Below, piece by piece: positions 1,304 through 64,000 of a stretch of DNA of 64,000 nucleotides. The position numbers and the translations under genes are program-made. The notes beneath the pieces were generated by a model, which searched no databases, had not been told where the DNA came from, and worked only from the letters and a program-made list of their open reading frames with translations. Numbering within the stretch: the first letter of the stretch is position 1; the number at the start of each line of letters is the position of its first letter. The stretch is from Amoebophrya sp. A120. Taxonomy: Eukaryota; Protista; Dinoflagellata. The stretch covers positions 4,713,394-4,777,393 of the forward strand of contig CAJINV010000005.1 in the NCBI GenBank assembly GCA_905178155.1, read 5' to 3'.

Positions 1304-2114
1304 TTAATCGCAAACCTCGGCCTCGCAGCACCCGGCATCGCAGGACTTTTCACTTGGCATGTTCCCCGTGAAGGCCTGCATGAGAAATCCGACTTTGTGT
1401 TGCATATCCGGGTCTTTGGCAGCGTGCATCTGAATCTGGAAGACACCTGATTTTGCATTGAAAAATCTGGGTTTCGTTTTTATTTTGCATAGCAAGCATC
1501 ACAAACACAATTCCACGTACTGCATATGCATGAGAAAGCCATAAAAGATCGTCTATAATACCCATCATCAGTTCCGTTTCCTGAAATCCCAAAGCCGCCA
1601 TCAAATCCCCTACGATCTCCGTGACCGCTGCTGGAAACTTCTGCATTTTTGCCATCATGGGGTTCTCCGCGTTGTTACATTCGTCGACCAAATCCGTTAA
1701 CTTCTTCTTGTTTCCTGTATTGTGAAGAAAAATTCCCCTCCCCCATACCAAAACTGCTTTCTTCTGAAAATTTGTGATGCTGATTTGAGACCACAGATCG
1801 TCTCTGTATTGCAAGAAGGCAAATCCAAAAACCTCGCCGCGTCCTGCTGGCAATTTGTAATGCTGTATGGCCTACGGATGATATGCCTGCCTTGCTAGGC
1901 GCCTACACCAGAACGCTCCTCCTCCAGCATTGTATCTGCCTGCAGTCCTCTACTACAAGACAAAGCCGATTTGTGTACACAAGTCCCGCATCACAGATTT
2001 CCATTTCGATATGGGGCGGGGGGATTTTTCCTTTTGATATCCTGGCTGCTGAAACCGGTTCCAGATTTCGTCCAGGGCGGTTTTCGCCTGCTCGGGAGTG
2101 AGTTGTGGCGGCAT
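1304..2114 (-). CDS. Small protein resembling the C10 / C12orf57 family; 3 exons (about 2114-2040, 1712-1562, 1446-1304)
   Basis: Spliced product MPPQLTPEQAKTALDEIWNRFQQPG|NKKKLTDLVDECNNAENPMMAKMQKFPAAVTEIVGDLMAALGFQETELMM|GVFQIQMHAAKDPDMQHKVGFLMQAFTG... Resemblance by eye to C10 (LSAEQAK..L.E....F..P.N, GF, DP). Intron 1 is an introner; intron 2 is GT-AG 1561-1447. Confidence 0.65.
1718..2039. mobile_element. TIR introner, family B
   Basis: TATTGTGAAGAAAAATTCCCCTCCCCCATA ... TATGGGGCGGGGGGATTTTTCCTTTTGATA; direct repeat TCCTG at 1713-1717 and 2040-2044; removal gives QQPG-NKKK in frame. Confidence 0.85.
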
Positions 2115-2884
2115 CTTTTGGTAAAGGAAATGGTCGTGGTAGGTACGGGGAACAAGTAGGGGTTGTTCACCGTAAATTCCTAAATTTGAAGAAGCAGTAC
2201 TAGAGTCTTCGTTAGAAAAAAGTTGTCCGCTGGGACGGTGAAGATCTAACTAGGAACTTTCTTGCAACTCGCTTGACTTGTCCCGCCTGAACAGAAATAG
2301 ACGTAAAATCGGCCTTTCTTTTTTTGCTAGATTGCGCTAAGTATCTTCAACAGCCAGAAGTTTTGATCGTTTTTCCCACCGTGTGAGTTGTGTGGTAAGT
2401 AAAACTGTTTGGTTCGTTCGACCGTTTTAGATGGATCTCCTCGATAACTACAGATCGAAAAAGAAGTTGGATCAACTCTTGAATGAAAAGCAGGCTTCTA
2501 ATTTGATTGGAACAGCAGCCGGAGAAGAAGCGTAGAAAGCAGAGGACGGACGGAGCCCCGCGGCGACGCCACCTTTTCCTTAGTCAATGTCAATTCTGGA
2601 GCTGCTGGCAACTATCATACACTCGTCTCAGTTAGTTTTGCTTCTTCAGAAAAACTTACAAGCTAGTATTAAAGTTCAATTTTTCTTGTTGTTCTGAAGC
2701 TGGTACATTAACCTATTTTGTACAAGTTTCAGCTTCCGGATCGGGAGTTTTTTACAAGTGACACTTCATTCTTTGAATTTCCAACTCACTTGTCTAGTCG
2801 GCAGACGAAACATGCGACTCCAAAGCGAGCAGGGTTCGTTGTGCTGCCGAAATAAACTCGTTCATTCTGTCTGACAAAATGTCA

Positions 2885-14942: not shown

Positions 14943-17900
14943 TCAATCGCACTGCTTCGGTAACAAATCCGCAAACGACAGCGACGTGAATTTCAAATTT
15001 CCATTCGCCCCTCCTGCTGCGCTACTACTGCTGCTGCTGCTCCCATTCCCCGCACGACCAGAACCTCCCGCATGATTTCCAACCATCTTCTTCCCGCATT
15101 TCGGGCATTTCGCCTCCGCTTCCCTTCCGACGTAAAACTGGTAAAACTTCCCGCAGTTCTTATTCTCGCACTTGTGCACCCGGGCGGTGTGTTTCACGTA
15201 CACCGTTTCGCCCCGGAGCTGGAACGGGTTGTTGTATCTCGTGCTGGTCGGTGTTAAGCAAGAAGTTAAAGGGTTATTTTGCTGACCATTACTCGTCGGA
15301 AAGATCCCAATCGCGGAGTTCAGCTTCTGGTTCACTTTCTGCACCACGTTGGAGAAGAATTGGGAAACGGAACTTTCCGTAGAAGTGGCAGAAGAGGAAA
15401 CAGCGGAGGTGTTCAAAATGTGGCTTTCTTGGTCGAGTCCGGAGGCATCATTGTTGCGGTTCTCACTGTCAAACACATGATCCGCTTCCCCGGTCCGAAT
15501 CAGATTCAGATCTCTCTCCGGCGTGAAACAACCTATCGAGCTGCTGTCACTAGAGGACGTGGAAATGTCAATCACACTGTTCACCACAGCGGTGGGCGCA
15601 AAAGACGTGCTGCTACGCTTCACGTGAATTGGCAATGTGTGCTTCACGAATCGTTTTACTTCACGTCGGGATTTGCGATCAGGGTCAGCACGACGAGATG
15701 AAGCAGCGGCCGGTTGATGAACATCTTCAGCTTCTTGGTTTCCTTCATACAGCTTCGATTGCTCGGATTGCTCCACTGGTTTGTTTTCAAAAACGACTTG
15801 TTCATCCGAAGAGTTGTGACTGCTGCCCACCTTGTCTGCTTTGTCATCTTTCTCCGGCGAACTGAGGCGTAAGAACGCGGTGTCCACCACCTGATCCTCA
15901 TCGTCTTCGTTATCAAATGCAAAAATGTCTGGGTCCTCTGGAAACTTCTTGTGATGCGAGTTTGTAAATGGTGGGCGCATTGCAATACGCAGACGCGCAT
16001 GACAAGTTTTCGAGCTGCTCCTGTGTGTTTCGCTTTCCACATGACAAACTGCATACTTGCATGACAGTCAGAAGAGAGCGTTTTTATTTTTTCCTGCTCA
16101 TGCATTACAGATTTAAGAGTCATGTGAGACAAGCATGACAAACTTTCATTCTTCCAGACCCAGACATATTTGCAACGCATATTCGTCAATCGGCTCCAAC
16201 GCCTCTCCCTTAGCAACAGACGTGTTCGAACACATCGAAATCTGTTCCTGCAGCTTCATTGTCATTCCCATTTCCGCATGACAACTACTACTCTCCCCGA
16301 CTGCAGCTCCCATATCAACCGCGTGCTCAACACCGATCAACCGTGGCGAGTACTGCGGCAGGACCGGGGAGATGGTGAGAGCCGAAATCCCGCCGAAGTT
16401 TGTCATGTAGTTGTCTACTTCCATAGTTGCAACAGGTGGCGGCTGCAGCTTCTTTTCCGCCCCAGATTTCAACATGGAATCTTCCTTCTTGATGTTCGCA
16501 TCATCTTGCTGTAGTTGTTCTCCTAGTTGCTGCTCTTCCGACTCCGCATTATGAACTGCAGAAGTATCGCACTCGTATAAATCGCATGACAAATTAGCTC
16601 AGCATGACAAATGAAATTTGTCATGCTGTTTTACCTTGGGATGAAGATTTGTAAATGCATGACTGCGATTACTACGAGTACGATACTTTTGCACAGGATA
16701 CGCATCGGACAGGGACAACGGGCTCAAATTTCCCTCAATAAACTTCGAGGAAGAATTCAGAATCCGGGAACAGTTCTGCTCCAACATCGCGGAATTGAGG
16801 AAGACAGATCCCGATCCGTAGTTGCTTTCATAATTTTTTTCTTCCTTGTTCATCATCACCGTCTCTTCCTGCACCTTCGCAGCGGCTGCCGCGACTTGCA
16901 ATCCCGAGTCGTCCTTATTGTAATCCACTAGTAAAGACGAAGATTTCTCGTTATTTTCCTCCTCTTCCTATGGAGAGAAAAAAGTTTGTCACAGTCATTA
17001 AGTTGCAGGCTTTGCATTACAAATTTTTTTTGCATCACAACTTCTCCTTGTATTGCAGAAACACGACTAGGGAAATTCCTTATGAGTTGTGGCTGTGATG
17101 CATTTTTACGCATGACAGACAGTTTTGTCTTGCAAAAATGCCCATGAGTGATCGTGACGAACTTCTTTCTTTTGATACTTCCTCCGGATAGTGCAGTAAC
17201 GGCGACTCCCCCAATTTCGACAAATTGAATTTCCCCCCGCCCAAATCAGACCCGCTGGAGTAACCATCTTCATCGTCCACCCCACTTTGATTCAACATAG
17301 ATTCATCCACCGGGCGGGTGGCAGTGGTCGGGAGCTTGGAAACACCGGTGCCGGTGGTTTCATCTGCCGGCTTCGACGCTGCAAGAGCGGTTGCTTTCAA
17401 CTCACCCATGACGCCGCCAGTGAAGGCAATCTGCTTCTTCCCGACACTTCCCTTCGAACCGCTGACTACACCTGCGCGCAATCGTTGTCCCGCAACCGTC
17501 TGCCGCATCATCACGTCGTCATCCGGAGACGCAGCACCAAAGTCTTCTGCAAGAAGTGCTAGTGGTGCTGATGAAGCCGTGTCTGGTTTTTGCTGGGACG
17601 ACGCAACTAAGATCTGTTCTTCGGATATGACTTGTTCAACGTACCCAAGCGATATCGTACCCAAAAATTTTTCAAAAAGGAATAACTACCCATACAGTAT
17701 ACTAATAAACTAGCTAGTTACTTTCGCTAGAAAGATAATGTAGCTAGTTAAGCTCTATATAGTTGAAGCATCCACCGCTGGAGAGTACGACCCAGTCGCT
17801 CTACGGCTTCGCCTCGGGACATAACGTATGGGCAACAACTGACGCGCCGGGATTTTTTCGGCAACATTCGTCGCCTGCCCGGGATATGTTCGAACCATGA

Positions 17901-20900
17901 AAGAAGACCAGCACAGCGAGAAGCTCGGGCAGGCGGCTTTTCCAGCGCTTGCAGGGGCCCGGCTGCAAGCTTCTACGCCTCCGGCCAACCAGCCGCGCGA
18001 CCATCCCTCTCCCCCAATGGCACAACGGGCGCCGGCTATGCACACATCAGGGGGGGCGGGGATGCCCCGCTACGATCCCCTGCCAAAGGCACTCGTGGGC
18101 GCTTTCCTTTTTAGCGCAATCCCGGCGTTGTGGTCAGTTTTTCACTCCCCGCTACAGGGGGATGTCCAGGGGGGTAGGTGATCCCCCTCCTGCCAAGGAA
18201 GGCCGCAAGCTGCCAGACGAGAGACGGATATGCAGTGGGGCTATCCTGTGGCAGTGCCCCTGCAGGAAATCAGAACACGCACAAGAATGGGCAGCGGCGG
18301 CCCAAAAGCCTGCGCGCGCTAGATGAGGGCGCGAAGCATTTCCACGCCCTTCGGCTTTTGAATTATACACGGCCCCGCCCGCCGGTAAGGCTACGAAATT
18401 GCTACGGTTTGACAAGCGTCCCCGGCTCCGATTCGAGGCGAAGCCGTAGAGCGACTGGGTCGTACTCTCCGGCGGTGGATGCTTATTATAGCTGCATTAA
18501 CTACATATGCCTTAAGTAACTACCTTAACAAAATAGTTAGCTTCTGCACTAGATAGTTTGAGTTTTTATACTAAAAAAATTTTTTTTGGGTACGATATCG
18601 TTTGGGTACGTTGAACAAGTCATATCGGACGAGGTGGAGTTATGCTCCTGCACAATCGACTTCGATAGGGTTGAATTGGGGTTAAACGAGCTGTTGAAGA
18701 TTGTTCCCTTGTTGAGCCTTGATTTGCTCTCGTCGTCGCACGAAGACAAAAAATCGCCGGAAATGTTGTCTTGATTTTCCTTTTTGCTAGAAGAGGAGTA
18801 GCAGAGATCTTCGGCACTGTTGGCGGAAGAGAGCAGGTGGTTCGGGGGAGAGGCGTAGTTGACTAGGGTGGCCTGAAGATCGATTATGTTATCCTCTTTC
18901 AAGTACGGGTCTCGGAGGGGAGTGAACTTCTTTGCGACGTTTTCTACCTTGGAATCCAGCGTATTGTCATCTTTCACGACATCTTCTGGTAAAACTTCCT
19001 CGTTTTGGTTGACAAAATTCAAGATCTCTTCACCACTGCCCCGCCGCTTTTCCTGCTTCATTTTCATCAACATTTCCGCAGCTTTGTCCTGCACCAAACT
19101 GAGCGCCAGGTTGCTCTGCGAAATAGGGAAGCCGTACGCGGTTTGGAAAGATTGAAAGCGCTCAAAGCTGCTGTTGTTCTTGACCAGTTTCTGCTGTTTG
19201 TTCAACTCAGTGAGGGTCAAGTTGTTGCTTTGGTGATTTTCTTTCTTCTCAACGGTTTTCTCTTGTTCCTGTCTCCGCGTCTCGTTCTCAAATGTTGCTG
19301 CAAGAGCATGACCAGCACCTTGACCGGTAAGCGGCCCGGTGAATTTCCTCTCAACAGCTTCGTCGTCCGCTACGAGAAAATCACCCCGGAAAACCGTGGA
19401 CCGCTTCTTATTCTTATTTCCCGTCAAACCATTAACATTCTCGCTGAAGAGATTCCCAGTATCCAAAGCGTTCAAAAACGAGTCGTGCAAGTTGTCACCC
19501 TCCAACAAATCGCACCGGAACGCGGACTTCATCGCCTTGGCGGTTTTGATCACGGAACTCAAGCGGCCGCTATTCACATCCGGAAACAAACCAAGCGTGC
19601 TAGAACAGTCCTCCGAAGCAGCTTTCTCCTCTTCAAACAACTCGCCTTCCGTATGCGCATCGGGATTCGTTTCTTCCTCATCCGCTTCTGCTTCCTCGAG
19701 GAACAACTGGCTGCTCTTCTCATCTACATTCACGGCTCCGTAGTTGTCTTGCTGTTGAAAGGAGAACTCCTTCTCGGAACAGAACTCCAAGATGTTGCTT
19801 TCGTCGTTCAGTGCACCAAGTTGCGAAAAACCGACTGCATATCCAGTGCAAATATGTCTGGGTGTGGAAGGTTGCATCAAAGACAAAGTTATCACACTGC
19901 ATGAAAATCATGCAAGTAAGCAAGTCCGCGCTGCATCGAGCAGGCATGTGCCAAATGATTACCGAACAGCCGCCCCCTTTGTTTTGCAAGGATTCTCGGG
20001 AAAAAAGGACGGCACGAAAATCATCGGGCGCGGGTCTGGAGGTAGCTGAAGCCCAGGAGCCTGCGCCACAATCGCGAGAATCTGCCAAGGCTCGCCCCCT
20101 TCCCTCTGGAAGAAGCTGCCCGCGCCAAGCTGAAAGACGCAACCCGGAGGGAGAATTTTTGCGAACTTTCGCGCGACACCAAAACCATCAGAGGCGGTTT
20201 TGGACGTGGCTGAAACTCAGAAGTCTGCGCCAAAATCGCGAGAATCTGCCAAGTTTCGCCCCCCTCCCTCTAGAAGAAGCTGCGCCAAGCTGAAAGGCGC
20301 AACCCGGAAAGCAAATTTGTGCGATTTTTTGCGCGGCACGAAAATCATCAGCGGCGCTTTTCGACGTGGCTGAAGCCCAGAAGTCTGCGCCAAAATCGCG
20401 AGAATCTGCCAAGTTTCGCCCCCCCCCCTCTAGAAGAATCTTTCTGCGCCAAGCTGAAAGGCGCAACCCGGAAAGCAAATTTGTGCGAATTTTTGCGCGG
20501 CACGAAAATCATCAGAGGCGGTTTTGGACGTGGCTGAAGCTCAGAAGTCTGCGCCAAAATCGCGAGAATCTGCCAAGTTTCGCCCCCCTCCCTCTAGAAG
20601 AAGCTGCGCCAAGCTGAAAGGCGCAACCCGGAAAATGAATTTGCGCGAATTTTTGCGCGGCACGAAAATCATCAGAGGCGGTTTTGGACGTGGCTGAAGC
20701 TCAGAAGTCTGCGCCAAAATCGCGAGAATCTGTCAAGTTTCGCCCCCCTCCCTCTAGAAGAAGCTGCGCCAAGCTGAAAGGCGCAACCCGGAAAATGAAT
20801 TTGCGCGAATTTTTGCGCGGCACGAAAATCATCAGAGGCGGTTTTGGACGTGGCTGAAGCTCAGAAGTCTGCGCCAAAATCGCGAGAATCTGTCAAGTTT

Positions 20901-23900
20901 CGCCCCCCTCCCTCTAGAAGAAGCTGCGCCAAGCTGAAAGGCGCAACCCGGAAAATGAATTTGCGCGAATTTTTGCGCGGCACGAAAATCATCAGAGGCG
21001 GTTTTGGACGTGGCTGAAGCTCAGAAGTCTGCGCCAAAATCGCGAGAATCTGTCAAGTTTCGCCCCCCTCCCTCTAGAAGAAGCTGCGCCAAGCTGAAAG
21101 GCGCAACCCGGAAAATGAATTTGCGCGAATTTTTGCGCGGCACGAAAATCATCAGAGGCGGTTTTGGACGTGGCTGAAGCTCAGAAGTCTGCGCCAAAAT
21201 CGCGAGAATCTGTCAAGTTTCGCCCCCCTCCCTCTAGAAGAAGCTGCGCCAAGCTGAAAGGCGCAACCCGGAAAATGAATTTGCGCGAATTTTTGCGCGG
21301 CACGAAAATCATCAGAGGCGGTTTTGGACGTGGCTGAAGCTCAGAAGTCTGCGCCAAAATCGCGAGAATCTGTCAAGTTTCGCCCCCCTCCCTCTAGAAG
21401 AAGCTGCGCCAAGCTGAAAGGCGCAACCCGGAAAATGAATTTGCGCGAATTTTTGCGCGGCACGAAAATCATCAGAGGCGGTTTTGGACGTGGCTGAAGC
21501 TCAGAAGTCTGCGCCAAAATCGCGAGAATCTGTCAAGTTTCGCCCCCCTCCCTCTAGAAGAAGCTGCGCCAAGCTGAAAGGCGCAACCCGGAAAATGAAT
21601 TTGCGCGAATTTTTGCGCGGCACGAAAATCATCAGAGGCGGTTTTGGACGTGGCTGAAGCTCAGAAGTCTGCGCCAAAATCGCGAGAATCTGTCAAGTTT
21701 CGCCCCCCTCCCTCTAGAAGAAGCTGCGCCAAGCTGAAAGGCGCAACCCGGAAAATGAATTTGCGCGAATTTTTGCGCGGCACGAAAATCATCAGAGGCG
21801 GTTTTGGACGTGGCTGAAGCTCAGAAGTCTGCGCCAAAATCGCGAGAATCTGTCAAGTTTCGCCCCCCTCCGTCTAGAAGAAGCTGCGCCAAGCTGAAAG
21901 GCGCAACCCGGAAAGCAAATTTGTGCGAATTTTTGCGCGGCACGAAAATCATCAGAGGCGGTTTTGGACGTGGCTGAAACTCAGAAGTCTGCGCCAAAAT
22001 CGCGAGAATCTGTCAAGTTTCGCCCTCCTCCCTCTAGAAGAAGCTGCGCCAAGCTGGAAGGCGCAACCCGGAAAGCAAACTCTTGCGAACTTTTGCGCGG
22101 CACGCGCGTCATCTATCGGAGGCGGTTTTGGACGTGGCTGAAGCTCAGAAGTCTGCGCCAAAATCGCGAGAATCTGGCAAGTTTCGCCCCCCTCCCTCTA
22201 GAAGAAGCTGCGCCAAGCTGAAAGGCGCAACCCGGAAGGCAAATTTTTGCGAACTTTCGCGCGGCGCGAAAATTATGGGCGGCGTTTTTGGAGGTGGCTG
22301 AAGCTCAGGAGTCTGCGCCAAAATCGCGAGAATCTGCCAAGTCTGCGCTGCTCCTTTACCGACTTCTTGAAGAAGTTGAGAAGAATTCCTTATGCAGGAT
22401 AGGCATGACAGAGATCCCACAAAATTTGTCATGCTAGGCGCTGCAGTCCAGACCTCATGTCATGGGTCACGAAAAACCTAGATGACAAACCCTGCACTCT
22501 TCCCGACCCAGACATATTTGCTTTCGATACGGCAAGAGCATTCGCGATTTCACCTATGTCGGAGGAAGCGTTCGAAATTGCGTCGAACTGGTGTTCTTCT
22601 TCATCTCCTTCTCCTTCTCCCAACGTGGCGGCCAACATTACGCTCTTCCACCCTGCAAACGCCTTACCCACAGTACCTCCTCGCAATAGGAGTAAAGAAA
22701 CCTTGAACAACTCCGCCCGACGTAATCTCTCCTCGGACAGCGACGCCGGCCTTGTTGCAGCCTTCAGCTGATGACAATGCACTGGACTTCTTGCCAAGCC
22801 TTGTAGTTTTTGCTCCATTTGCAACATCCGCTGTTCCCGGCGTTTCTGCTGTTCCCGATGGTAAGCAGCGAATGAATTCTCGTCATTATCTCCGCTTCCC
22901 GGCGATTCAGTCGCAGCAACTAGCTCGGTCCTCCGGTCGAGCGCGAATCCTTTGATCGTATCTGCAGTGGTGTCATTATCCGTGTGGGAATGAGCTTCTT
23001 CCTCGGTTTTGTGGGACAAAGTCAAGGCTTTTTCCGGCACCGGCCTTCGGTGAAGAGAAGTTGGAGGGTTCAACATTCGCGTGCTGCCCGTTTGTTCATC
23101 ACCAACTGTAGCAGATTTGCCTCCGGGTACAACCTGCTTTATCAGGTCGCGGACAGAGGAGATCATCGGTCGTGCGGAGAAAGAGAGAGACGCGTTGGCT
23201 CCTTCCCCTTGCAGAGGACCTCCATCGTGATGTCCATCTTCGGTATTGAGAGTTCCTCGCGAGGGGTCCTCGTTGAGCGTACGCGAGATCGAGACGCCGC
23301 TCTCGGCCTGATATCAGTGTGAAGATTTTTTCAGGATTTTGGTATACAAACTCTGTCATTCCAGATAAGCAAAAGATCGAAGCTTTGTCATGCTGAATAA
23401 CGATAAAAAGGTTCTATGTATCTGTACCTCCGCCTGCAACTGTTTCTTCAACTCCATGACCGTGAAATTCTCCTCCAACATCTTCAGCGCCATGCTCTGC
23501 TGGCGCTGCTGCCGTTCCTGCATCAGAAACTGACTTTCCGATTGCTCGTTCCGGATCTTCACAAAGTCCCGCTTTATTTCCATCTCCTCTTCCATATCGA
23601 ACCGCCTTGCTTTCTTTTTCCCCGCAGACCCCGGCGGGGTGCTGATGGTGAAGTGTTCCACCGGACTCGAGCTGTTTGGAATGTTGTCCACTGCAGAAGC
23701 AAACACTGGCGTTGCTGGGGAAAATGCGCCCGTCTTTTCCAGATCCCGCTTCACATTGATCCTTTCGACCTTGTTGATCCTCATCTTCTCTAAATCGTGC
23801 CCAACAGTCTGAAGCCGCTCCTTGATCGTAGATGGCGGATCTTCGCTGTGGGAAGAAGTTGTGCTGTTGTTCAAGTAAGGTTCAGTTCGAGAAGTTATTC

Positions 23901-38311: not shown

Positions 38312-38539
38312 CTATAAGATTTATACGTTTTGATAAGGTCGGATCTTGTTCACGCGGGGGCACACGCGGTGGGTCTGATCATAAACGACGAGAGGAAACA
38401 TCAAAAAGTCAAGTTTAAGACCTATGTAGTGCATCCTGAATGAGGGTTATTTCAAATCGAATGCATGTATGCAGACGTTTGCGGTGGGTTTCTGAAAATC
38501 AGACTGTTGTATGCAGTAGCAGTTTTGCGTCGTCCTATA

Positions 38540-41500
38540 TTAGCACCAAACTCCAGTCAAATTGAAAGTTTCCTGTTCAATCATCGCTTCCATACTATAC
38601 AAGCCTGGTCCCTCGAAATTGGCGCCGTGGTATGCCTCGGCCGGGAGCGTTGGGAGCTGTTGAGATGTGAGCGCAGTATCGAAGAAAATTGCGTCGTGGA
38701 TGCGTTGGGCGTCGCGCGTATAGTAGTAAACCACCTTGGGGTGCGCAAGTGCGGTCCGTGGAAAAAATCGGAGGCTGGTTGTCAATTCAAGAGACATCAA
38801 TTCAGCGTCGTGGTCCAAATCGCTAGTGCTTGTTTCAGCAATCGCATTTCCGAGCGCGATTCGGCGCAGTAACAGTGTCCAAAACATGGTATCCAGCATG
38901 GCCCTGGCTTTCTCCTCGGTAAACGTGTAAGTCCGCTGGAACTCTGGCTCGATGGAACTCATCCTTTCCAGGTCGAGATCGAAAAAAAGGAAAAATGCGT
39001 CCAGGTCCCAGGGATGAACGCGGACTTGCAAAAGGTCTTCAAACATCTTCGCCGTCCGGAACTTCCACGCTAGCAGTTCTTTCACCGACCAATTTGGATT
39101 TGCACTGACCCACTGTTTTTTCATAGTCCACCTCTTGGACACGTCCCCGCCAAATCCCCGGTGTACGCGCCACATGGCCGGCCGCACGGTCTCGTCCAGG
39201 AAGTCGCTTGTCAGGTAGTCGTTCGACATATTGATCGTCTCATCTGCCGACGTTGTCGTGGAGGTGAACGTGCTAAAGTTCGTCAGCATTCTATCAAATG
39301 GAAAAATCGCCCCGCTTCATATTGAAAAGAACGTTTCTGATGCTGGATTTGGATACACAAATCACATCTGTGTTACAGTAGAGGAATGCACGCAGATCCT
39401 GAGCCTAGGCGGGGGCCTTTTGGTGTAGGTGCGTAGCATGCTAGACGGCTACCCTGTAAGCCTTACAGCATCACGCATCGCTTCCATAACGTGGCGGACT
39501 GCCTGCGTGTGCCTTCTTGCAAGACAGGTCCGACTTGTGGCCACAAATCTGCATCGCAAATTTTCAGATGGATGCGTTTTTAATATAGGGAGGGGGGTGG
39601 ATTTTTCCTCACAATACATTCGCATCTGAAGGTAATCCCGAACGGAATTTTGGGAAAAGCCGCCAGGCTGGAGGTTGCCGGCCTCTATCAAACGCAAATC
39701 TGTGTGGGTTTGGAAGATTGCGAGATTTGTCATGCGGGTCCGGCATGACTCTGCCCTCTGTATTGCGGGGCCGCAAAGAGCTCCTTTTCCCTGTCATTCT
39801 TCAAAAACGCACTTTCTCATGCGCAACAAACAACTCACGACCACGGAAAAGACTGGCCATGCTTGGCAGCGCATTAGTACAGTGTGCTCATAATTATTCC
39901 CTAACTTGCATCACAACCTCCCAGAGGACCCAGACATATTTGCAGTGCATATCCGCGTCGTAAAGAAGTCTCGGATTTTCCACGCTCTCCACGTAGGGCC
40001 CGTACACAATTTCCTTCGGAAACGGGGGCCGCGGCTTCAACCTCGCGTAGGAAAGGTGAATTTTGTCGTCGCGAATGTTTTCGAGAAAATGATGCTGGAG
40101 GGTCAGGTTTTTTAGCGCCGTTGGAAGAAGTTGATTGTTCTGCGCAGCTGGGACAGCGGGAGGAGCAGTAGAGCCATCAGCATGCTGAAGATTCTCATTG
40201 TCATGCGCTGGTGGACTTCTAACAGGGGGCGTGCTTGCTGGTGTTAATATGCTTCTCCGATTTATTGTCAGCTGCATTTGAAGGAAAGACATGTCGGATT
40301 GGATTGCCGCGCCACGCCGTGAAGAACGGTCCGGAAGAACATGGTCTTCATCGTGGACACCGTCATCCCCATTCACCTTCGCATGGTGCACTTTTTCTTC
40401 CGCAAGCTCGTCCTGCAGCCCCGTCGAGAGAAAAGAAGCTCGTCCAGCAGGAGCTCCAGCTTGGGCAGAACCAGGCGATGGCGTCTGGGTCTGAAAAACT
40501 TCCGGAAGTGTCGGGCCCTCTATCCCAAACTCACTCAAGTCATACCTCTCCGCCAGCAGACTGGCGACCAATACCTCGTCCCCGCGAAACCGGTTCCACC
40601 GCAGCTCCTTTTTCAGTTCCTCTGTCAGCCGCTGCGACTCCCCGGACCGCATCGGCGCGGGACGCTCCCCTTGGGTTTTCCCACTGGGTGGGACCCACTT
40701 CGCGGGAATTTTGGCGCGGACAGTCGGGGGGATGGCTTTCGGTTTCGGCGGGGCTATAATCTGCGGCGCTTGTTGAGGTGGACTACCTGATGGGGGGGTA
40801 GTAGAACTACTACTACCTGGATCATTCGCCCCACCATCTGGTGCCGGTCGTGCTCCTCCATCTCCTCGCTGCGGACCAATCAAAAGCTCGACATCGGGAA
40901 CAATGCGCCGACTCGGTATTCCTCCACGAGCTCCCCCGGGTCCTGCGCCGCCTGTCGTTCCTCCAAGCGGCTGACCTGGTGCGGGCGCGCCGCCTGGAGC
41001 AGAAGCAGGTCCTCCCAGCGCCGGTGCTGGTTCTTGCTGCATACTACCACCCCCGCCGGCCGCGGTACCACCTCCGGGATGAAGAAGAGTTTGCTCCTCC
41101 TCGTGAGTCGTGGACGACGTCTCTTTTTTCTCGTCATTTTTCTGTTCCTTCGGTACCGAAAAGACCAACACTAACGTGATCGTCAGTGCAACGACGATCA
41201 CAGAAACCACGACGGCTCCGACCGTCCAGACCTTCCAGTTTTTTGCGAGCGCAGATGTGGCAGTGGCATGACCTTCCTCGTCGCTGTGATCCTTAAGAAC
41301 GCGATCCGTTTGGAGATCGTGATACTGGGAGTTATCATAGTCTGCAAGCCGTTTCAGAAAGTCGTCAGAGCGTTTTGCTTCATCATCCGGTTGTAGAACA
41401 AGTTCTTGTTCCTGTATAAGATCTTGCTCGTCACCAGCATCGGCGTTCTGCAGTTGCTGCTGTTGCAACAGCAGCATCTGCGCCATAGCCAATCCCTGCG

Positions 41501-44500
41501 GGTTCTGCCGCTGATCGTGCACCGCCTTTAGGGTGGATAGATTTGGAACGAGAAATCTGGATTTTATTTTCTCCCGGGGGCCACGAGCTGACTCTGGGTC
41601 ACGACCATCTTGATCTTGCCCCTCGCCGTCCTCCTGCTCCGTGCTTTCTTCCTCCCTCACAAAAATCTTCTCGACCACTTCCGGCCTGATTTTTGCTTTC
41701 CTGCAAGTCTTCCAGGAGAAGTCAGAGCCACTCATCTCCTCCAAGGCGGTTTTGATCTCTTCCGCGGATATCCGCTTTTTCGGGTCTTTCACGAGACAGT
41801 GCTGCAGAATACCGTTCAAGTGCTCGAACTGCAACTGACTTTCCTCGGGCAAATAAACTGTAGTTGTTGTGTCGGCTTTTGATTGTGCTGTTGGGGTTGT
41901 ATGATCTGATCGTCCTCTTGCTGGTCCATCTGCGACGGCATCAGGCGCGACGAAGTTTTTGTGTTCTCGAAGTAGGTCATCAGCGTCGTCGTCCTTCGAC
42001 GTCTTTCGGTTATTTGTGCGTGACATTTTCTCTAGTACTTCTAGAGGTTCAACGTGTGAAGAGAACTGTATTAACTTGGATGGCGGGGAAGTGTAACTTT
42101 GCTTTTCTCTGCCACCTGGTGCCGTTTTTGCCGCGGAATCTCGCTGGGACCCTCGGGAACGCGAAGATGGTATGCAGAAAAACAAAATAAAACCTTCGTC
42201 AATGATGAGATGAAGTACACGCACTCTTTAGAAGTGCAGCCTGTACTTACACCAGAAATATATAACGCGCCGTTCTCCTAGACGTAACAGGTTCTTCCTG
42301 GATCTTCATACACAATCGTAAGAAACGATGAATATGAACCAAGCAAAAAAACGGACACTCATCTCCTGGGATTTATGCGTACTGTAATGTCACATCAAAC
42401 ATTCATGCCTCGGTCGTGCACGTGTCGCAGAAACTGCATCTACACAGTAATCGTCATGACGAAAGTAGATTTTCTCGTGCGGATAGATGACGCATGATCT
42501 ACTTCAGCCCCAATGCCAGAAGTCGTCCCCACGTTCTTCGAGGGGGGTATCAAAGTGCTGGCCGTGCTCTGGAATTCCAAGTGCTGCTCGTTCTCTATAA
42601 TAGTGGCCGGGTAAAAATCTTCTTCTTGTTTATCGGAGTTCTTTTTGCTATTTGATTTCGACAGCAATCCCGCCTGGCCGCTTGAAGAAAGTGTAGGCCT
42701 CTTATGTTCCTCGTCTAGTACCCGTTCCACTTCTTCTATGGGAAATCGCTTGACCTGCGGAAACTGAATCACCAAGTCCGGATCTATCACCGCAAACATA
42801 ACCCGATTATACCCCCCTCCGGCGGCTCCGCCCGCCTTGGAACTCAATCGCATCAGGTGCTCGAACGGCGTTCGTAAATGGATCAATTGGTACAGAATGA
42901 TCCCCAACGCCCAGCAGTCCGTATCAAATGCGAAAATGTCTGGGTCTGGAAGAAGCCGCATTTTTGCCATGCTGTTTTCGCATGACACAAGAGGTTCGGC
43001 ATGGAAGCCCCTAGCATCACAGGTTTCTACATCAAGGTTCCGCAATGCCTAATCTGCATGATAAATCCCTCATTTTCTTGGTGACAGGAAAGGGGCAGCT
43101 TTTGCCTCCTATGCATGAGAGATTTTTCTGTGTTCTGAAATGCGCATCACAAGTTTGCATTCTCCCAGACCCCGACATATTTGCAATTCATAGTCCGCCG
43201 CGGGTCGCATTTTCAACAGCTGGTCCGCGTTTTCCAAGTTTTCCGTATCAAAATGAAGAATCCCCCCTCCCCATATCAAAGCGGAAACCTGTGACGCGGG
43301 ATTTGTGTACACAAATCACATTTGTCTTGCAGGAAAGCACTGCTCGCAGATCGCAAGCCTAAGGGGGGGCCTTTTGGTGTAGGGGCCTAGCATGGCAGAC
43401 GTCTGCCCTGCAGGCCTTGCAGCATTACAAACGGCCTGCATATCGCGGCGGACTCTCTGGCCTTGCAAGACAAACAGGACTTGTGGTCACAAATCTGCAT
43501 CACAAATTTGCGGAAAGACATGTTTTCAATATGGGGAGGGGGGATTTTTCATTTTGATATTCCGGCTGGTAAAAGCACTCCGGCGCCATGTACAACAGCG
43601 TCCCCGCGTGGTTTTGCCGAGTCACATACGACTTCTCCTCTGCAAACTGCTTCGCGAGCCCAAAATCGGACAGTTTTATCTTCACATGGAAATAAGACCG
43701 CTTCATATGATTTTCGAACGTCGGTGAACCTCCTTGATCGTCCACTAGAGGTTGCTGCACGTAGTCCGCCTCCACGTTGGAGTGGAAAACGAGGAAGTTC
43801 GCGGGCTTCAAGTCAAAATGAGCGACCTGCACGCTGTGGATGAAGGCGACGGCGTCCACCATCTGGGTCCAACAATGGAGTAGAAGTGGCAGCGACATCC
43901 CCCCGTCTGGAATGTTCATGCTGTGATAAAGCGCTTCGATGGTCCTCTCCGTCTTCTCTGAAGTGAAGTTATCGACTTCTTCCAGCGGTGTTGACGGTGA
44001 GGTTTTCGTGTTACTGCTTTTACGTCCCACCTCAGAATTTTTCATCATCGTCTTGCTTCCCTTCTTCGTCTTCGTGTATTTCAGAAACCTTTTCTGGTAT
44101 TTCGCGAAGTCGCAGTCGGCGAGCTCGAGCAAGAGAAACATTTTCAAATTCTCCGGCTCGTAGTTGGCGCCGTAACTCTGGATGATGCAGTCGAGCTTTT
44201 TCGCGTTTAATTTTTCCAGGATTTCAATTTCCTTCACATACGCGTTGTACTGCCGCTTATCCTGCGCGGAGACCGCCTTCAGCGCGAATTCCCTTTTGCC
44301 TATCAAATGTAAAAATGTCTGGGTCTGGAATATTCTGAGACTTGTCACGCAGGTTTTCCATGGCCCATGATGTCTGTGATGCATGCCCTAGCATCACATA
44401 TTTTTTGAGGGCATCTTGATGCCTAGTCCGCATGACAAATGTCCTCTCTGCGTGGCAAAAATTACATTCTCTTTGCTGCTCATGCAATACAAGTTTTTTT

Positions 44501-45584
44501 GGAATCCAAATGCAGCATCACAAGTTGCAACCTTCCAGACCCAGACATTTTTGCATTTGATATTGCCCCGGGTCGCGCGAAAAACCTCCGCGCTGCCGCC
44601 TCGCCCGAGAAACTCTTGGACGAGGAAGCTGCCCTGAGAGATGTGAAACGAGCTGTTGGTGGTGATCAGAGTCGGTGGTGATAGTTGTTGTACAACGGGT
44701 TCAAGAACTCGTTCATCCAAAATAGCAGGAGGAGGCGCAGCTCGCGCTTGATTACTCCCGAGAACACCTGTAGACACTGAGGCTTTCCATTCTTCATTTT
44801 TCCTGTTGAGTGATAAGCCAGAAGAGGTCCGCGACTTCTGCCCTGTCGAAGTGGTAGACTTCTCAAATTTGTAACTAGGCGGAGGTGGAGTGCCAGTCGT
44901 GGTTCTCCCTTTCGTTCGGTTGGTTGCTGTGCTGGAGTTATTTCTCGTCGTCGACGTCGATTCATAATTTGTTGATGTCGCTGGAGGTCGGTCACTAAAA
45001 ACTTCATCACGGTCGCTCCGTCTTTGTTCTGCTTTTTCCCTTCCTCCAGCCCGTTGTCCCCCCGGCGTGTTCCTCGGAGATAAAGTTGTTCCTGTCGTGT
45101 AGTGGTACAGATCCCCCACGCGCTCGCCATTCTCATCGCTGCTGCTGGTGCTGAGCAAGGTCGGAAACTGCTCGTAGTTGACGATCATGTTGTTGGAACT
45201 GTGGGTAGTTGTTACACGGGGGCTGGAGTTCCTTCTGGGATCGCTGTTGTAGCTGTCGTTTTTACCTTCCTCGTGCTGGTCCGGAGGAGGTTGTAGTGGA
45301 ACCTGAGCCACTCGCTCTGGTGGTAAGAACTCTTCTCTCCCGCGCCCATGCTGTCGTTGCTCTGGACCTTGAGCCGATGCACCAGGTCGTGATGACGAAA
45401 ATAACCGTCCTTGCGGAGCGGGAGGAAGTTGCGAAGAGTCGTCTGTCGCCCAATCCTTCTTCCGCGGTGCCTCGTAGTGATGGTCTTTTTCTTCACCCCC
45501 CTGGTGACTCATCACTTTCCAAACCCGATTCTTGCGTTCCGCCTTTGCTGGTAGTGGTGGTGGTGCAGCTGCTCGGGGGTTCTC
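38540..45584 (-). CDS. Mps1/TTK-like protein kinase followed by a single transmembrane helix and a long C-terminal region; start exon not resolved
   Basis: Spliced motifs LGRGGSAEVF, FALKAV, YVKEIEILEKL, WTQMVDAVAFIH, HFDLKPANFLV, IKLSDFGLA, GTLLYMAPE, DCWALGIILYQL..TPF, AVIDPDLVIQFP and CLVKDPKKRIS; TM VWTVGAVVVSVIVVALTITLVLVFSV (about 41155-41232); six introners removed in frame. Confidence 0.75.
39292..39616. mobile_element. TIR introner, family B
   Basis: TATCAAATGGAAAAATCGCCCC ... GGGGTGGATTTTTCCTCACAATA; direct repeat CATTC; joins LQMRM-LTNF. Confidence 0.85.
39686..39951. mobile_element. TIR introner, family A
   Basis: TATCAAACGCAAATCTGTGTGGGT ... ACCCAGACATATTTGCAGTGCATA; flanks GCCTC/TCCGC; joins LYDA-DGNLQ. 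Confidence 0.8.
42171..42485. mobile_element. TIR introner, degenerate
   Basis: TATGCAG..AAAAT....TTCGTCAATGA vs TCATGACGAAAGTAGATTTT..GCGGATA; flanks GATGG/GATGA; joins DHASS-SRSRG and links kinase subdomain X to XI. Confidence 0.65.
42922..43192. mobile_element. TIR introner, family A
   Basis: Direct repeat GTCCG; removal rebuilds kinase subdomain IX AAD-CWALG. Confidence 0.92.
43246..43559. mobile_element. TIR introner, family B
   Basis: TATCAAAATGAAGAATCCCCCCTCCCCATAT ... ATATGGGGAGGGGGGATTTTTCATTTTGATA; direct repeat TTCCG. Confidence 0.92.
44301..44562. mobile_element. TIR introner, family A
   Basis: Direct repeat TTGCC; removal joins the kinase Gly-loop to the subdomain II lysine (ATRG-KREFALK). 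Confidence 0.93.
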
Positions 45585-59300: not shown

Positions 59301-62300
59301 TCAGCGTTGAAACCATTCCGCCGGCCCCAACTCGTCCGTATCCGCCCTGTTCCTACTTCCTCCCCCGACTCCGCTGGTATCCGTATCTTTATCGGCAGCA
59401 CTCGCGGCGGCTCTTTCGCGGGAGGCTTTGTGGGAATCCTCGAACGGCTGTTGCACTTCGTCGTTGACCTCCTCAACTACTGCGGGATGAGCTTTTGATG
59501 CCGCTTCAACACCCGGCCGTAAATCCCTCTCCTGATATTCGGCTCCTTCTGCCCGATGCAGGCTGTCGTTGGCATTATTTCTCTGGTTTGAACTACACTG
59601 CTGCTTCGATTTTATTTCCCGACCACGTCCCCTCGGGAGCCTGTTCGACGCAATGGGCATACCCATGCCGAGGCAGACGCTCATTGCGGTTCGCTCCTGA
59701 AGCATCACGGGAAGGAGAAACCGGTCCAGCACTTGCTGTTTCTTCCTCGCTATCAACTGCAAAAATGTCTGGGTCTGGAAGGACGGAACTTGTGATGCGC
59801 ATCTTACACCACACAAAAATTCCTCATGCATAGACAGCAAGAGTTGCCCACTTTTGTCATCGAAAAATAGGCGATTTGTCATGCGGATTAGGCATCGACG
59901 CAGCTTCTCAAAACTTGTAATGCTAGTGAGACCTTGCTTGCCAGAACTTCCGGGTCATGGAAAAACAGCATGACAAAAATGTCCATCCTTCCAGACCCAG
60001 ACACTTTTGCATTTGATACTCGCTTGCTCAGACGAGGAACACAACTCTCGGTCTGGCTTGACGTGGTTGGATGATGAGCTGCTTGACGAGGATGAACTGT
60101 TGGAAAAGGATGAAGAGGAATTGGTTTTCTTGTTCTTTTTGCGACGACGGCCGTTCATTTCATCTTGAAAAGCTTGCTCGTCTTCTTTCGCGGTGTCTAC
60201 TAGTTGTACATTATCCTCGCAGAAGGCTTTATTCTTGCTCCCAGCGCTCCTGCAAGAGTCGTGATCTTTTCTTTCCCAAGAAAGCCAACTCGAAGCGGAT
60301 GCTGCCGTAGGTGCAGGGTCAAGAGCCGGAGCTTGTTGCTGTTCCAATCCGTGTAAAAAGTCATTTCCTCGTGTCGTGGTTTGCTTGTTCGTCCGGTAAT
60401 CAAAATCCCGGGAAGTAGTCGACGTAGCAGCTTGGTGAGGCAGGCTAGACGAGCCAATGTAGTTGTTGTTTTTGATCATGATGTCATGGTCGCTGTTATT
60501 CGTCATCTTCATGTCAGTATTGTCACTACCTTCGTACGTGTCCACTAAATCCCGCCAATACGCGTCTTCGTCCTCTGCCGCGAGGGAGGGAAAGGATTTC
60601 CAGGAGGAGTATGGATTGCAAAAATGTCTGGGTCTGGAGCAGAAGTTTGTCATGCAGATTTTGCATCATCCATGAGGTCTGTGATGCATGCCCGAGCATC
60701 AGAGATTTTGCGACGGCTTTCTGATGCTCATACCGCATGAGAAATGCCCTCTCCGCGGAGCACAAATTACACCTCTTTTGCTGTTCATGCAATACAGATT
60801 TTATGTAGATTCCAAAAGTAGCATCACGAGTTTGTACTCTTCCAGACCCAGACATTTTTGCATTTGATAAAGAGTAGTTCGAATCGATTGGAGGCTCGTG
60901 GTCGATTTCCACGTGCATTTCATCTTCATCACCAGCACCGTCGCCATCAACAGTGTGGAAAAATGCAGCATGCTGTGGGTTCTCTGCCGAGTCGGACACT
61001 ATCCACTTTCCTTCACTAATCCTACCGTCGGGATTTTCCTTCGCAGTCGAGGATCCGACTAGAAGCAATTCCTCCACTTCCGTAGACGATTTAGAAGACT
61101 TCCGCGAGGAAGAGGAAAATCCGCTCGAAGAACCCTGAAGCAAAGCCCCCCGCAGGTTCGCTTCCGGACCAGGAACCAAAAGATCATGCGACGACAGAAC
61201 ATCGTGATCATTTTTTCCGTCACGATTTTTTCCCGCCTGCGGACACTGGTGGAAGTCGCGAGTAGTAGAGATGAAAGTTGGCTGCTCATCCAGTTGTTCG
61301 TCCACGTCCTGCTGTTCAACTACAAAATCTGTAGTTTCTACAAGCGACCGCTGCTCCGCCGATGCGGACTCCTTCGTCGAGCAAGAACTGGCAGAAGGGG
61401 CGGCTTGGCGAGTAGTTTTGATCTTTGTTCCTTCTCCTGCACTTTTGAGCTCACCTGGAAGAACACTGATGTTGCTTCTGCTCTCCACCTCCATGTCCAC
61501 CTCTTCCACCTCTAACGCCACTTTGTGTCTGCTCGCCGACCAGTTCGACCTGTCTTGCATCATTTGCTCCTCGCCGTGCTGTAGCTGGTTCTGGCTCTTG
61601 TGATGAAAAGTAGAGATTTCCGACTCCAATTGCGTCAGCCGGAGCAAGATTTCCTGTTCTTCTACAGAAAAGTCTGCTAAATCTGCATGATCGTCCTCTA
61701 GGACCTCCGCGACCGGATGAAACTGATCTTGCTGCTGTGACACGGCGGGGCGGAGCATGTTGGTGTTTTCCGCAGCGGGATGATCATGAACACCCGTACT
61801 ACCACTACTAGTACTTCCACTTCCTGGAAGCTGCGCGTGATTTTGATTATCCGCCTGATGACAGGAACGCGACGATTTCGATTTGTCATGCGACATGGGC
61901 GCGTTGTAACTTGAACTTCTGCTTGTACCTCCGGTAGTCTCTGCTTCTTGCGGTCGTGGTACTACACCGCCGCGGTCTCTCTCGCTCGCAGTTGTCGAAA
62001 TCTCATCGACGGAAAAATTTCTGGCTTTATTGAGTACTACTTCACTTGACGCGCCAGGAGCTCGTGCACCTCCGTGATCGACGAATTTTATATCCGTCTG
62101 ATTATCATACACCCATGTTGATTCAGAGATGGCTATACCTGCTCCACCAGCTCCGAGAACTTGAGAACTACGGTGGTCGTTGTTTCCTTCATGCTCCTGC
62201 GCGGAGGTCTTTGTCGACTTTGTCTTGCTAGAAGAGGAAGAGGAGGAGGATGCAGACGCTTTCGTCTTTCCACGACCGCCCGCTGCACTCCCTAAGTTCA

Positions 62301-64000
62301 TCTCTTCCAGAAGTTTCTCCAATTTCGCCTCATCGTCCCCTTCTTTCCCGGTGGTCAAAAACTCGAAGGTGCTAAGGTTAAGGGCTTCTAACGTCCGGAA
62401 CTGCCGTGTGACATCACGGTCATAGTTCTCCAGCAAATCCAGATGATCCATATCATCTTCCGGGTCCGGTTGTTGTGCTTCACCTTTTGATAATTTCAAC
62501 ATTTTGATTTTGCAAATGCACAACACAAATAAGCCTACAATTCTGTCTTGCAGCAATCGGCATGAAGCATACGTGTTCTTTGTCAAGCCAAAATCCTATA
62601 CCATCAATTGTTTATTGTCATGCCAAAATCCTATAGTACCATCTTCGCCGCCGACCACCAGCACTACTCGCCTTCCTTGGTTCGTTTTCACCGGGAAATC
62701 GAACCCGCTTTTTGGCAAGTCGATCATCACCGCTTGAGAGCCCATCCGGCCTTGCCGCAGACTCGGACCAGGGATGGCTGTTTTTGGTTGTATGTAAGGC
62801 TTTTTTTGTCTTTGTCATGCTGAATGACAAAAAAGAAAAACTCTTGGTCTAGAAGGTGAGAAGTCAAGCATGTTCTATGTTCTTGCTCCTCAACAACACA
62901 GACAACTTTGTTCAGCAAATTAAACTCAATACTTTTCTTCGGAGTCCACTCTCTTTCCTGCTGGGAACCTCCAGAGTGGTCTCCATTTCCTCTATTTCCC
63001 GATCCTGTCCCATCATTCGTTCCCGCTAGCCGGTCCAAAAACACGCGTATCCCGTCCCCACGCTGGTGCCCAGGTGCGTCGTTTCCCCTCCCACGACGCG
63101 GCTGGCGTTGGCGGTTTTCCTCGTCCATATCATCCGTGTCTCGCAACGTGTAGCCCCCCGTGTCCGACAGAATCCACCGCTCCAGCAACCTTTTGTCTAC
63201 CTCCTGCAGCGGGCTCTCGTTGTCGCTGTCGTGCGAGAGCAGCTCCCGCGCGTCCCGGTTTCTCAGCGGAGATGGGGGCGGTTCGGAGGAGAAAGAGCTG
63301 CTGCTGGAACAGCTGGGGCTCCTACTGCTGCAACTGTTGAATTCTTGCGAGGAATCATTTAACGAGGAGGCGGAGGAAGAAGCACTGGAAGTCGCGTTCG
63401 TCGTTGTGCCCTTCTGCAACAGAAACGAACGGGAGGCTCTAGTGTTCGTTCTGCTCGTCGTTCTAGTTCTACCGCTGGTGGATATGATTTTGGGGATAGG
63501 AAGCAAGCGATTCTTGCTTTTTTTGCCGGGACCTCCATCAACAGGAGCGGCGCTTGTGGTTGAAGAACAACCCCCGGGTGGTGCAATCCACGCCGAGGAT
63601 GAACTTGAGCTCGTCCCAAAGGTGCTGCTACTACTTGTTTCGTCCCTTCTTGTAGTGGTTCCAGGAAGATGTTGATCAGTATAGTGGTCTTGCTCGAGCG
63701 CAACGGAACAATCCATCGAAGCAGTCGCCGAAGCACTGCTCGCAGAAGAAGATGAAGAAGCGTCGTGTCTGTCCCTTGTAGAACCGCCCGGCCGGGCTTT
63801 TCGTGACTTCTGTGCTCCGCGATCGAAATTTTTACCGCTTGCGGCCCTTCTAGAAGCGGCGGAAGACTATCAAGTGTAAAAGTGTCTGGGTCTGGAAGAT
63901 TACTAGATTTGTCATGCATATTTTCCATGACCCATGATGTGTGTCTGTGATGCATGCCGTAGCATCACAGATTTTTAGAGCGCTTCCTCATACCTATTCC
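59301..64000 (-). CDS. Partial large low-complexity multi-exon protein; 5' part beyond the window, 3' end and the 62480-62850 junctions uncertain
   Basis: ORFs 62727-63716, 60526-62586, 59955-60653 and 59301-59882; in-frame joins SNYS-SWKS and SEQA-RKKQ across introners. Confidence 0.55.
59751..60018. mobile_element. TIR introner, family A (inverted relative to 42922-43192)
   Basis: Family A TIRs; direct repeat CTCGC. Confidence 0.92.
60610..60869. mobile_element. TIR introner, family A
   Basis: Family A TIRs; flanks AGGAG/AAGAG. Confidence 0.9.
63868..64000. mobile_element. TIR introner, family A, truncated by the window edge
   Basis: TATCAAGTGTAAAAGTGTCTGGGTCTGGAAG followed by family A internal sequence. 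Confidence 0.85.

Follow-up and report, generated by a model that had tools for sequence, protein, structure and literature searches.

The 64-kb window analysed here is a stretch of 64,000 nucleotides from the dinoflagellate Amoebophrya sp. A120 (contig CAJINV010000005.1, positions 4,713,394 to 4,777,393 of the forward strand). It contains 30 complete transposon-like elements, typically bounded by TAT and ATA and flanked by a 5-bp direct repeat; the 21 whose junctions are seen in presumed-RNA contigs are missing there as introns, cut in a single register relative to their ends. The flanking repeat is perfect in 19 elements and diverged in 11. An initial annotation of the same DNA had counted 27 elements (19 perfect and 8 diverged); the number of perfect repeats agrees, whereas the totals of complete elements and diverged repeats have increased.

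Elements and their removal from transcripts

Two scans located the elements, an unbiased one for inverted repeats and one anchored on TA; BLAST of the elements against the window, sequence inspection and the RNA joints described below completed the inventory. Beyond the 30, the window holds a degenerate candidate (23312-23426) and an element truncated at the window end (63868). When TAT…ATA ends, a 5-bp repeat without mismatch and an arm score of 6 or more are all demanded, 18 pairs remain; 100 dinucleotide-shuffled sequences averaged 0.02 such pairs, and none had more than one. The 19th perfect repeat belongs to element 37932 (elements are named by their first position), which has weak arms and so falls outside this strict set. 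A brute-force search of five other window regions for further decayed elements gave nothing convincing, and an Rfam search of the window returned no match. The six internal frames of the 999-bp element 17626 have no Pfam match.

The host strand is minus for 29 of the 30 elements, which all lie within three genes, and only probably minus for 1718. The best characterized host gene (33169-45584) contains a protein-kinase domain (exon 43500-44384, Pkinase match, E 2e-20). Removal of element plus 5 nt at all 18 of its elements produces a single 2467-codon frame and rebuilds the motifs AA^DCWALG and ATRG^KREFALK, as the initial annotation had described. A change of ±1 or ±2 nt at a single intron breaks this frame at 17 of the 18 sites; the last intron, 33253, is uninformative by frame because two of the four shifts yield a slightly longer frame. 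For host gene 2, two exons were searched against Pfam with no match.

Two regions of the window were compared with contigs presumed to derive from RNA (X3, X4, X5 and X8). These regions wholly contain 22 elements, for which 21 junctions are seen (the 24176 junction is not shown); elements 1718, 15911, 16550, 16969, 17626, 19840, 59751 and 60610 lie outside them. The skipped length equals the element length plus 5 nt at all 21 junctions, which bears out the single net excision rule predicted by the initial annotation. The presumed-RNA contigs use the predicted junctions; they neither retain the elements nor turn to nearby GT/GC/GA-AG sites. From X3, X4, X5 and X8, 15 joints are listed, one of which covers two introns and a micro-exon, and two more junctions were read from contig pieces. 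The three junctions in host gene 2 were likewise read from contig pieces, not from the joint table; these are contiguous in a 10.7-kb X3 contig on the minus strand and skip 244, 215 and 156 nt. X3, X4 and X5 represent one sample and X8 a second sample of the same study, in which six of the 15 listed joints were found again. RNA contigs of 6.4–7.7 kb span 17 junctions of the kinase gene, and 33253 is spanned by separate short contigs. The evidence consists of contigs rather than reads; the raw-read RNA runs X9 and X10 placed only 9 and 1 reads, respectively, on element ends. The X1 DNA contigs cross four complete elements without any change (33253, 36082, 37932 with 38282, 42171) and extend into others, and the depth of the DNA run is 10^4–10^5 over elements versus ~50 over exons.

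To describe the cut, we define k as the number of upstream-repeat bases left in the 5´ exon. Junctions with perfect repeats (13 of 21) can slide and cannot place the cut, whereas the eight with diverged repeats are informative (Table 1). The only register compatible with all 21 junctions is k=4; eight registers placed at random would have a value in common with a probability of 0.028. Because k=4 alone fits all junctions, the intron consists of one base, TAT…ATA and four bases (N/TAT…ATA·NNNN/, with slashes at the cuts), a fixed −1/+4 register in which we have high confidence. In this register, none of the 21 RNA-seen junctions is GT-AG, and a check of every register confirmed the earlier statement that 15911, 16550, 17626 and 33807 have no register with an AG end. 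Element 38282-38594 matches its repeat at 0 of 5 positions in register, which leaves no possibility of sliding, and is still cut at −1/+4. The repeat is thus a transposition scar and not a signal, contrary to the initial annotation, which had made it part of the excision signal. If 38282 were instead bounded by TG…CA, with TACTA as its repeat, 314 nt should be skipped; the contig skips 318, and this alternative was discarded.

Two observations concern host gene 2. The candidate intron 23308-23427 (120 nt) has decayed arms, the internal motif described below and GT…AG ends at −1/+4, and it may be an element turning into an ordinary intron. Its removal fuses frames of 1902 and 1341 codons, and other in-frame right ends do likewise. 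A tandem array of ~160-bp units (19960-22360, ~2.4 kb) lies inside a family-A element and expands it into an intron of 2.7 kb; judged by frame, the ends of this intron still obey the rule.

Table 1. Coordinates of the elements and host genes in the window, with flanking repeats, skips seen in presumed-RNA contigs and values of k allowed by informative junctions.
Feature	Position	Strand	Repeat and remarks	RNA skip (nt)	Allowed k
Element, family C (~320 bp)	1718..2039	. (host probably minus)	perfect, TCCTG		
Host gene 2, 3218-codon open frame	14943..29946	-	once 9 elements and candidate 23312 are removed		
Element, family A (~262 bp)	15911..16181	.	perfect; AG in no register		
Element, family B (~150 bp)	16550..16700	.	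perfect; AG in no register		
Element, ~208-bp family	16969..17177	.	perfect		
999-bp element	17626..18624	.	long, partly decayed arms; GC-rich core; without shared motif		
Family-A element with ~2.4-kb tandem array inside	19840..22529	.	1 mismatch		
Candidate decayed element	23312..23426	.	GT…AG ends at −1/+4 register		
Family-A element	24176..24437	.	2 mismatches; RNA piece begins 24438, consistent with register		
Element, ~239-bp family	26549..26787	.		244	
Element, ~210-bp family	28251..28460	.		215	
Family-B element	29035..29185	.		156	
Host gene 1, protein-kinase domain, 2467-codon open frame	33169..45584	-	18 element introns, no canonical introns		
Old element, 5´ end TAC	33253..33491	.	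1 mismatch	244	≥1
Family-A element	33807..34069	.	AG in no register	268 (joint includes micro-exon letters)	
Spacer with 11-nt micro-exon between two elements	34070..34084	-	micro-exon retained in RNA contigs		
Old element, 3´ end ATG	34085..34281	.		202	≤4
Family-A element	34350..34610	.		266	
Family-A element	35299..35562	.		269	
~280-bp-family element, 3´ end AAG	35696..35976	.	3 mismatches	286	3 or 4
Old element, almost no predicted arm pairing	36082..36455	.		379 (contig pieces)	≥4
Family-B element	36846..36995	.	1 mismatch	155	≤4
~280-bp-family element	37057..37334	.		283	
Family-A element	37388..37639	.		257	
Old element, weak arms	37932..38228	.	perfect	302	
Key element	38282..38594	.	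aligned repeat gone; intron 38278-38595, GT…AT	318 (joint 38277→38596)	4 only
Family-C element	39292..39616	.		330	
Family-A element	39686..39951	.	2 mismatches	271	2-4
Old element	42171..42485	.	1 mismatch	320	≥1
Family-A element within kinase D-x-W-x-x-G motif	42922..43192	.		276	
Family-C element	43246..43559	.		319	
Family-A element directly ahead of kinase A-x-K motif	44301..44562	.		267 (contig pieces)	
Host gene 3 (predicted), 918-codon open frame	59301..62595	-	after removal of 2 elements; bounds from ORF (open reading frame) list		
Family-A element	59751..60018	.	perfect		
Family-A element	60610..60869	.	1 mismatch		
Family-A element truncated at window end	63868..64000	.	by sequence similarity		

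End composition, pairing and families

The family-A end pattern was found in 174 stretches of metagenome contigs and in none of the viral contigs; the 78 loci listed all belong to a single other public assembly. Copies in this second assembly reach as much as 95% identity with elements of the window, and it has no gene in common with the window. A search there for inverted-repeat pairs that assumed nothing about their ends returned 443 pairs, with TAT…ATA at 158 of the 169 perfect 5-bp flanking repeats. In the second assembly, the detector reported 323 elements, with a fully perfect 5-bp repeat in 251; it found none in 129 kb of shuffled loci versus 90 in the same real loci. Without recourse to RNA, orientation was predicted for 225 of the 323 elements from codon use or from the strand with an open frame, and 98 were left out (the two methods agree in 97 of 97 cases). 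Together with 29 of the 30 window elements, these form the oriented set (n=254).

The 5´ dinucleotides of this set are GT (86), AT (69), TT (50) and CT (49). AG ends occur in 21 of 254 elements, and GT-AG in 8 at the fixed register and in 18 in any register. Both G at +1 and AG occur at background rates (flanking G 0.30), the exon +1 position has background composition, and the Euglena-type signature N3CDG…CH′GN5-6/R is not matched. Positions +1 and −1 do not covary (p=0.66, n=142). Diverged repeats show no drift toward G+1 or AG in the second-assembly loci; in the window, 3 of 5 do. The 5´ ends share a TAT-N7-AAA pattern, with A at positions 11, 12 and 13 in 98, 101 and 102 of 108 oriented ends, respectively. 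Most window elements carry this pattern, which is absent from 17626 and 38282 and is shifted or partial in some others.

In contrast to the free +1 position, T occupies +2 in 254 of 254 oriented elements. The outermost T is lost 0 times at 5´ ends versus 8 times at the 3´ mirror position (p=0.008), and two of the eight losses are in RNA-supported window introns. Detection requires one intact end, which inflates conservation equally at both ends, and the interior sense-strand A>G bias is mild (177 versus 153) and does not explain the asymmetry. No asymmetry was seen at the other end positions. In spliceosomal donors, no base is under tighter constraint than U+2. The 0-versus-8 asymmetry is a hint of a relaxed spliceosome. 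In Table S4 of Farhat 2021 (PMC7789003), T is at +2 in all nine top A120 non-canonical intron types, although aligner habits could contribute. The earlier proposal that excision is independent of spliceosomal dinucleotides thus stands insofar as GT-AG is not needed, but it does not extend to U+2, which is invariant on the sense strand.

The initial annotation had also proposed that the boundary is read from the terminal hairpin, for which the evidence is weak. The predicted in-register pairing of the terminal three bases is below 0.2 in 8 of the 21 RNA-supported introns, and the expected number of arm-arm pairs, 12 or more in 19 of them, is below 2 in 36082 and 37932. G·U is not in excess over A·C in the arms (234 versus 210, p=0.28), so selection on RNA hairpin pairing is unsupported. 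A better retention of the 5´ A-run than of the 3´ U-run (p=0.017 at first) was lost position by position with more elements. The arms and motif vary less than the interiors; as selection for splicing, selection for transposition and detection bias are inseparable here, this was not used as evidence. On balance, the data speak for U+2 being read as sequence and for the 3´ cut being measured; that a hairpin is indispensable appears less likely.

Clustering by interiors gives 15 groups among the 30 window elements and 39 overall, and 12 families have 4 or more copies (4–186 copies, window and loci). The initial annotation had counted at least eight sequence-unrelated families; this count holds, but the families are unrelated only in their interiors, and ends and motif are common to them. 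The motif, GCAWNACA, is present in both orientations in all 12 families of at least 4 copies. Its strict form occurs in 25 of the 30 window elements; the density is 12.1 per kb within elements and 0.15 per kb elsewhere in the two transcribed genes. GCAWNACA looks like a branch point, but this reading was rejected as unsupported on account of the motif's strand symmetry (38 versus 39 discordant cases), which would fit a DNA-binding site for a shared transposase. Family-A copies occur in both orientations relative to genes (46 versus 27). The TAT…ATA ends and 5-bp duplication agree with the pattern given for miniature inverted-repeat transposable elements of Ginger and IS3EU/GingerRoot (TA..TA or TG..CA, 4–6-bp duplication). 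Mobilisation of all families by one transposase type, as the initial annotation suggested, is plausible from the shared ends, duplication and motif, although no transposase was found in the sequences listed below.

Among the additional copies, L005:1473-1698 combines the left end of one family with a right end that belongs to a different family, with flanking exons on opposite strands; it may be a misassembly or an inversion through the shared motif. Four copies of short families are over-long (457–834 bp) with intact ends and repeats (L032:632-1465, L036:3314-3770, L070:571-1051 and L071:3862-4492), and no simple nested element or long frame was found in them.

Models of excision

We propose that the elements are small non-autonomous DNA transposons inserted in exons, and that a relaxed spliceosome of the U2 type, which would read the transposon ends, probably makes the cuts at −1/+4. 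From the observed geometry, net length, single register, lack of a G+1 or AG preference and presence of the elements in DNA contigs, we infer the following steps. An integrase-like DDE transposase from the Ginger/IS3EU-GingerRoot neighbourhood, supplied in trans, would bind the shared ends and GCAWNACA, copy many families and make a 5-bp staggered cut. In the pre-mRNA, N/UAU would serve as 5´ splice site in place of G/UAU, so that U+2 is needed but any base may stand at +1, and the 3´ cut would be set by distance, 4 nt beyond AUA, with no need for AG. Arm pairing probably helps to join the ends in young copies and would not be strictly needed in old ones. Since 1+4 equals the duplication length, insertions would be scarless in either orientation, and the families could therefore spread through coding sequence. 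That the excision chemistry is spliceosomal seems to us somewhat better than an even guess. For A120, nearly all spliceosomal proteins and the U2, U4, U5 and U6 RNAs are reported, but no U1 (Farhat 2021, PMC7789003), and the Fritillaria precedent described below shows that introns outside GT-AG can be processed by a U2 spliceosome in modified form.

Several points weigh against this proposal. The RNA status of X3, X4, X5 and X8 is a guess, and no matching run is on record as RNA; three of the four runs come from one sample and all four from one study, and contigs lose rare junctions. Only the 38282 junction fixes k=4 by itself. The U+2 asymmetry was noticed post hoc, as one of 8 positions tested, and relies on second-assembly orientations predicted from open frames and codon use; if the unoriented copy L004:1359 is a 5´ exception, its p value becomes 0.039. 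No lariat, branch point or small nuclear RNA (snRNA) pairing was seen, although lariats would be invisible in contigs, and the A at −7, considered as a branch A, is not invariant (2 exceptions). No transposase was detected in the window, in five elements longer than 400 bp or in 90 of the 103 long frames of the loci (~0.5 Mb).

The same −1/+4 rule could be executed by a non-spliceosomal nuclease and ligase that cut at fixed offsets from the paired ends, a model not far from that of the initial annotation. This would account for the disuse of both G+1 and AG, and it agrees with the strong arm pairing of 19 of the 21 RNA-supported introns and with the report that U1 was not found in A120 (PMC7789003, in part). 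In Euglena, too, the code is defined by distance from paired ends, and those who described it propose factors outside the spliceosome (PMC12501133, PMC11282704, in part). Yet the cut is equally exact in the two introns with fewer than 2 expected arm pairs and in the eight whose terminal pairing is weak, G·U is not above A·C, and the terminal pair is broken only by changes in its 3´ member (8 cases) and never in its 5´ member (0), which points to U+2 being read as sequence and not as a pair. We consider such an enzyme possible but doubtful. Still less likely, in our view, is a second, dedicated code, N/UAU…AUA-N4/, in which a transposon-end factor measures the target-duplication length and makes the whole superfamily invisible in mRNA; this end-recognising factor would possibly derive from a transposase or replace the missing U1 small nuclear ribonucleoprotein.

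The remaining explanations deny either the fixed register or splicing itself. A cut that slides within the repeat from site to site, at constant net length, would be compatible with the 13 perfect-repeat junctions, with the sites called variable in the Fig. 3 legend of Farhat (PMC7789003) and with the annotated dinucleotides mixed within each family of the Gozashti dataset (PMC12130899). It is quite improbable, because all eight informative junctions, one of them without a repeat, agree on k=4, and mixed annotations would be expected from an aligner on slidable junctions. The TA ends and transposon origin, together with the presumed status of the RNA contigs, also recall elimination from DNA in some life stage, whereby transcripts would copy cleaned DNA. 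TA-bounded eliminated sequences are removed from DNA in ciliates. Here, DNA contigs carry the elements unbroken, X3 lacks cover at 30671-32671 where the DNA run has it and its pieces end as transcripts would, and the register is asymmetric to the coding strand though family-A copies lie in both orientations; these observations make DNA elimination very hard to sustain. A hairpin flanked by direct repeats, as present at the elements, is a known substrate of reverse-transcriptase template switching. That the skips are such artefacts is scarcely credible, since the 38277→38596 joint shares no letters, hairpin-poor elements are also skipped and all 18 skips are jointly required for the 2467-codon frame.

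Known systems and neighbouring features

Judged by their sequence, the window elements match the published A120 introner elements, and their geometry (TAT start, 5-bp repeat, TA/TA termini) has already been published. In the portions consulted, Farhat 2021 (PMC7789003) describes introner elements that share the TAT start followed by seven loose bases and at least three A, non-GT-AG borders, direct repeats of 3–5 nt (5 bp in the Fig. S19 legend), a length of ~240 nt, many families and the lack of an internal transposase. The splice sites are variable there relative to the hairpin, with the border unknown, whereas a single −1/+4 register applies here. General transposase mobilisation is ruled out there; here, in contrast, an internal motif is common to families and the repeat is always 5 bp. 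More than 60% of introns are non-canonical in the published A120 genome, whose description, as far as consulted, leaves borders and mechanism open. In the material seen from Gozashti et al. 2025 (PMC12130899), A120 has 58 families of DNA introners with terminal inverted repeats (105–810 bp), among which family 38 is annotated as 'Ginger; 5-bp TSD, TA/TA termini' (TSD, target-site duplication). Across the 41 of 58 family rows seen, the TSD length called automatically ranges from 2 to 6 bp, single families combine different splice dinucleotides and no shared rule appears, in contrast to the present elements.

The nonconventional introns of Euglena (PMC12501133, PMC11282704, both in part) are likewise transposon-like and non-GT-AG, with slidable junctions and fixed offsets from paired end motifs that leave a longer 3´ overhang. 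Their code is N3CDG…CH′GN5-6/R, compared with N1-TAT…ATA-N4 and no purine rule here, and, unlike in Euglena, pairing appears dispensable in old copies. Fritillaria borealis (PMC13326754, PMC11282704, in part) also has non-GT-AG introns derived from terminal inverted repeats and TSDs, which are handled by a modified U2 spliceosome. AG-AC and AG-AT ends are favoured and U1 is kept in this species, whereas +1, −2 and −1 are free here and only U+2 looks fixed. According to the parts seen of PMC10045372, the TA..TA termini of IS3EU/GingerRoot and the 4–5-bp duplication of Ginger2, both with integrase-like DDE enzymes, are shared with the elements, but IS3EU/GingerRoot duplications are usually 6 bp instead of 5 bp. 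TA..TA ends with a 5-bp duplication would thus place the elements between IS3EU/GingerRoot and Ginger2. The consulted portions of PMC12787238, PMC12005148 and PMC11453091 contain nothing on mechanism.

The elements themselves are known; what the present analysis adds to this literature is a fixed −1/+4 register, a repeat that can be dispensed with, an asymmetry at U+2 and a motif common to the families. The fixed register is not stated in the literature searched, with figures and part of the supplementary family tables outside that search. A single register predicts the exact 5´ end of any excised lariat or circle, singles out U+2 as the critical base, in place of +1, AG or the repeat, and would allow gene models to be corrected genome-wide. 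Two offsets that sum to the duplication length would explain how transposons flood exons at low cost. If the proposal is true, A120 would provide, with Euglena and Fritillaria, a third independent host splicing code fitted to transposon ends.

Elsewhere in the window, a small minus-strand gene at 50100-50740 contains several TAT/ATA ends, A-runs and the shared motif, and no clean pairing was found in it. Two similar intronless minus-strand open frames at 51600-53213 and 54323-55792 (537 and 489 codons), with no Pfam matches, are apparently a tandem duplication. Tandem arrays occupy 4080-7000 (~240-bp units) and 46500-48800 (298-bp units), and the latter has long palindromic cores.

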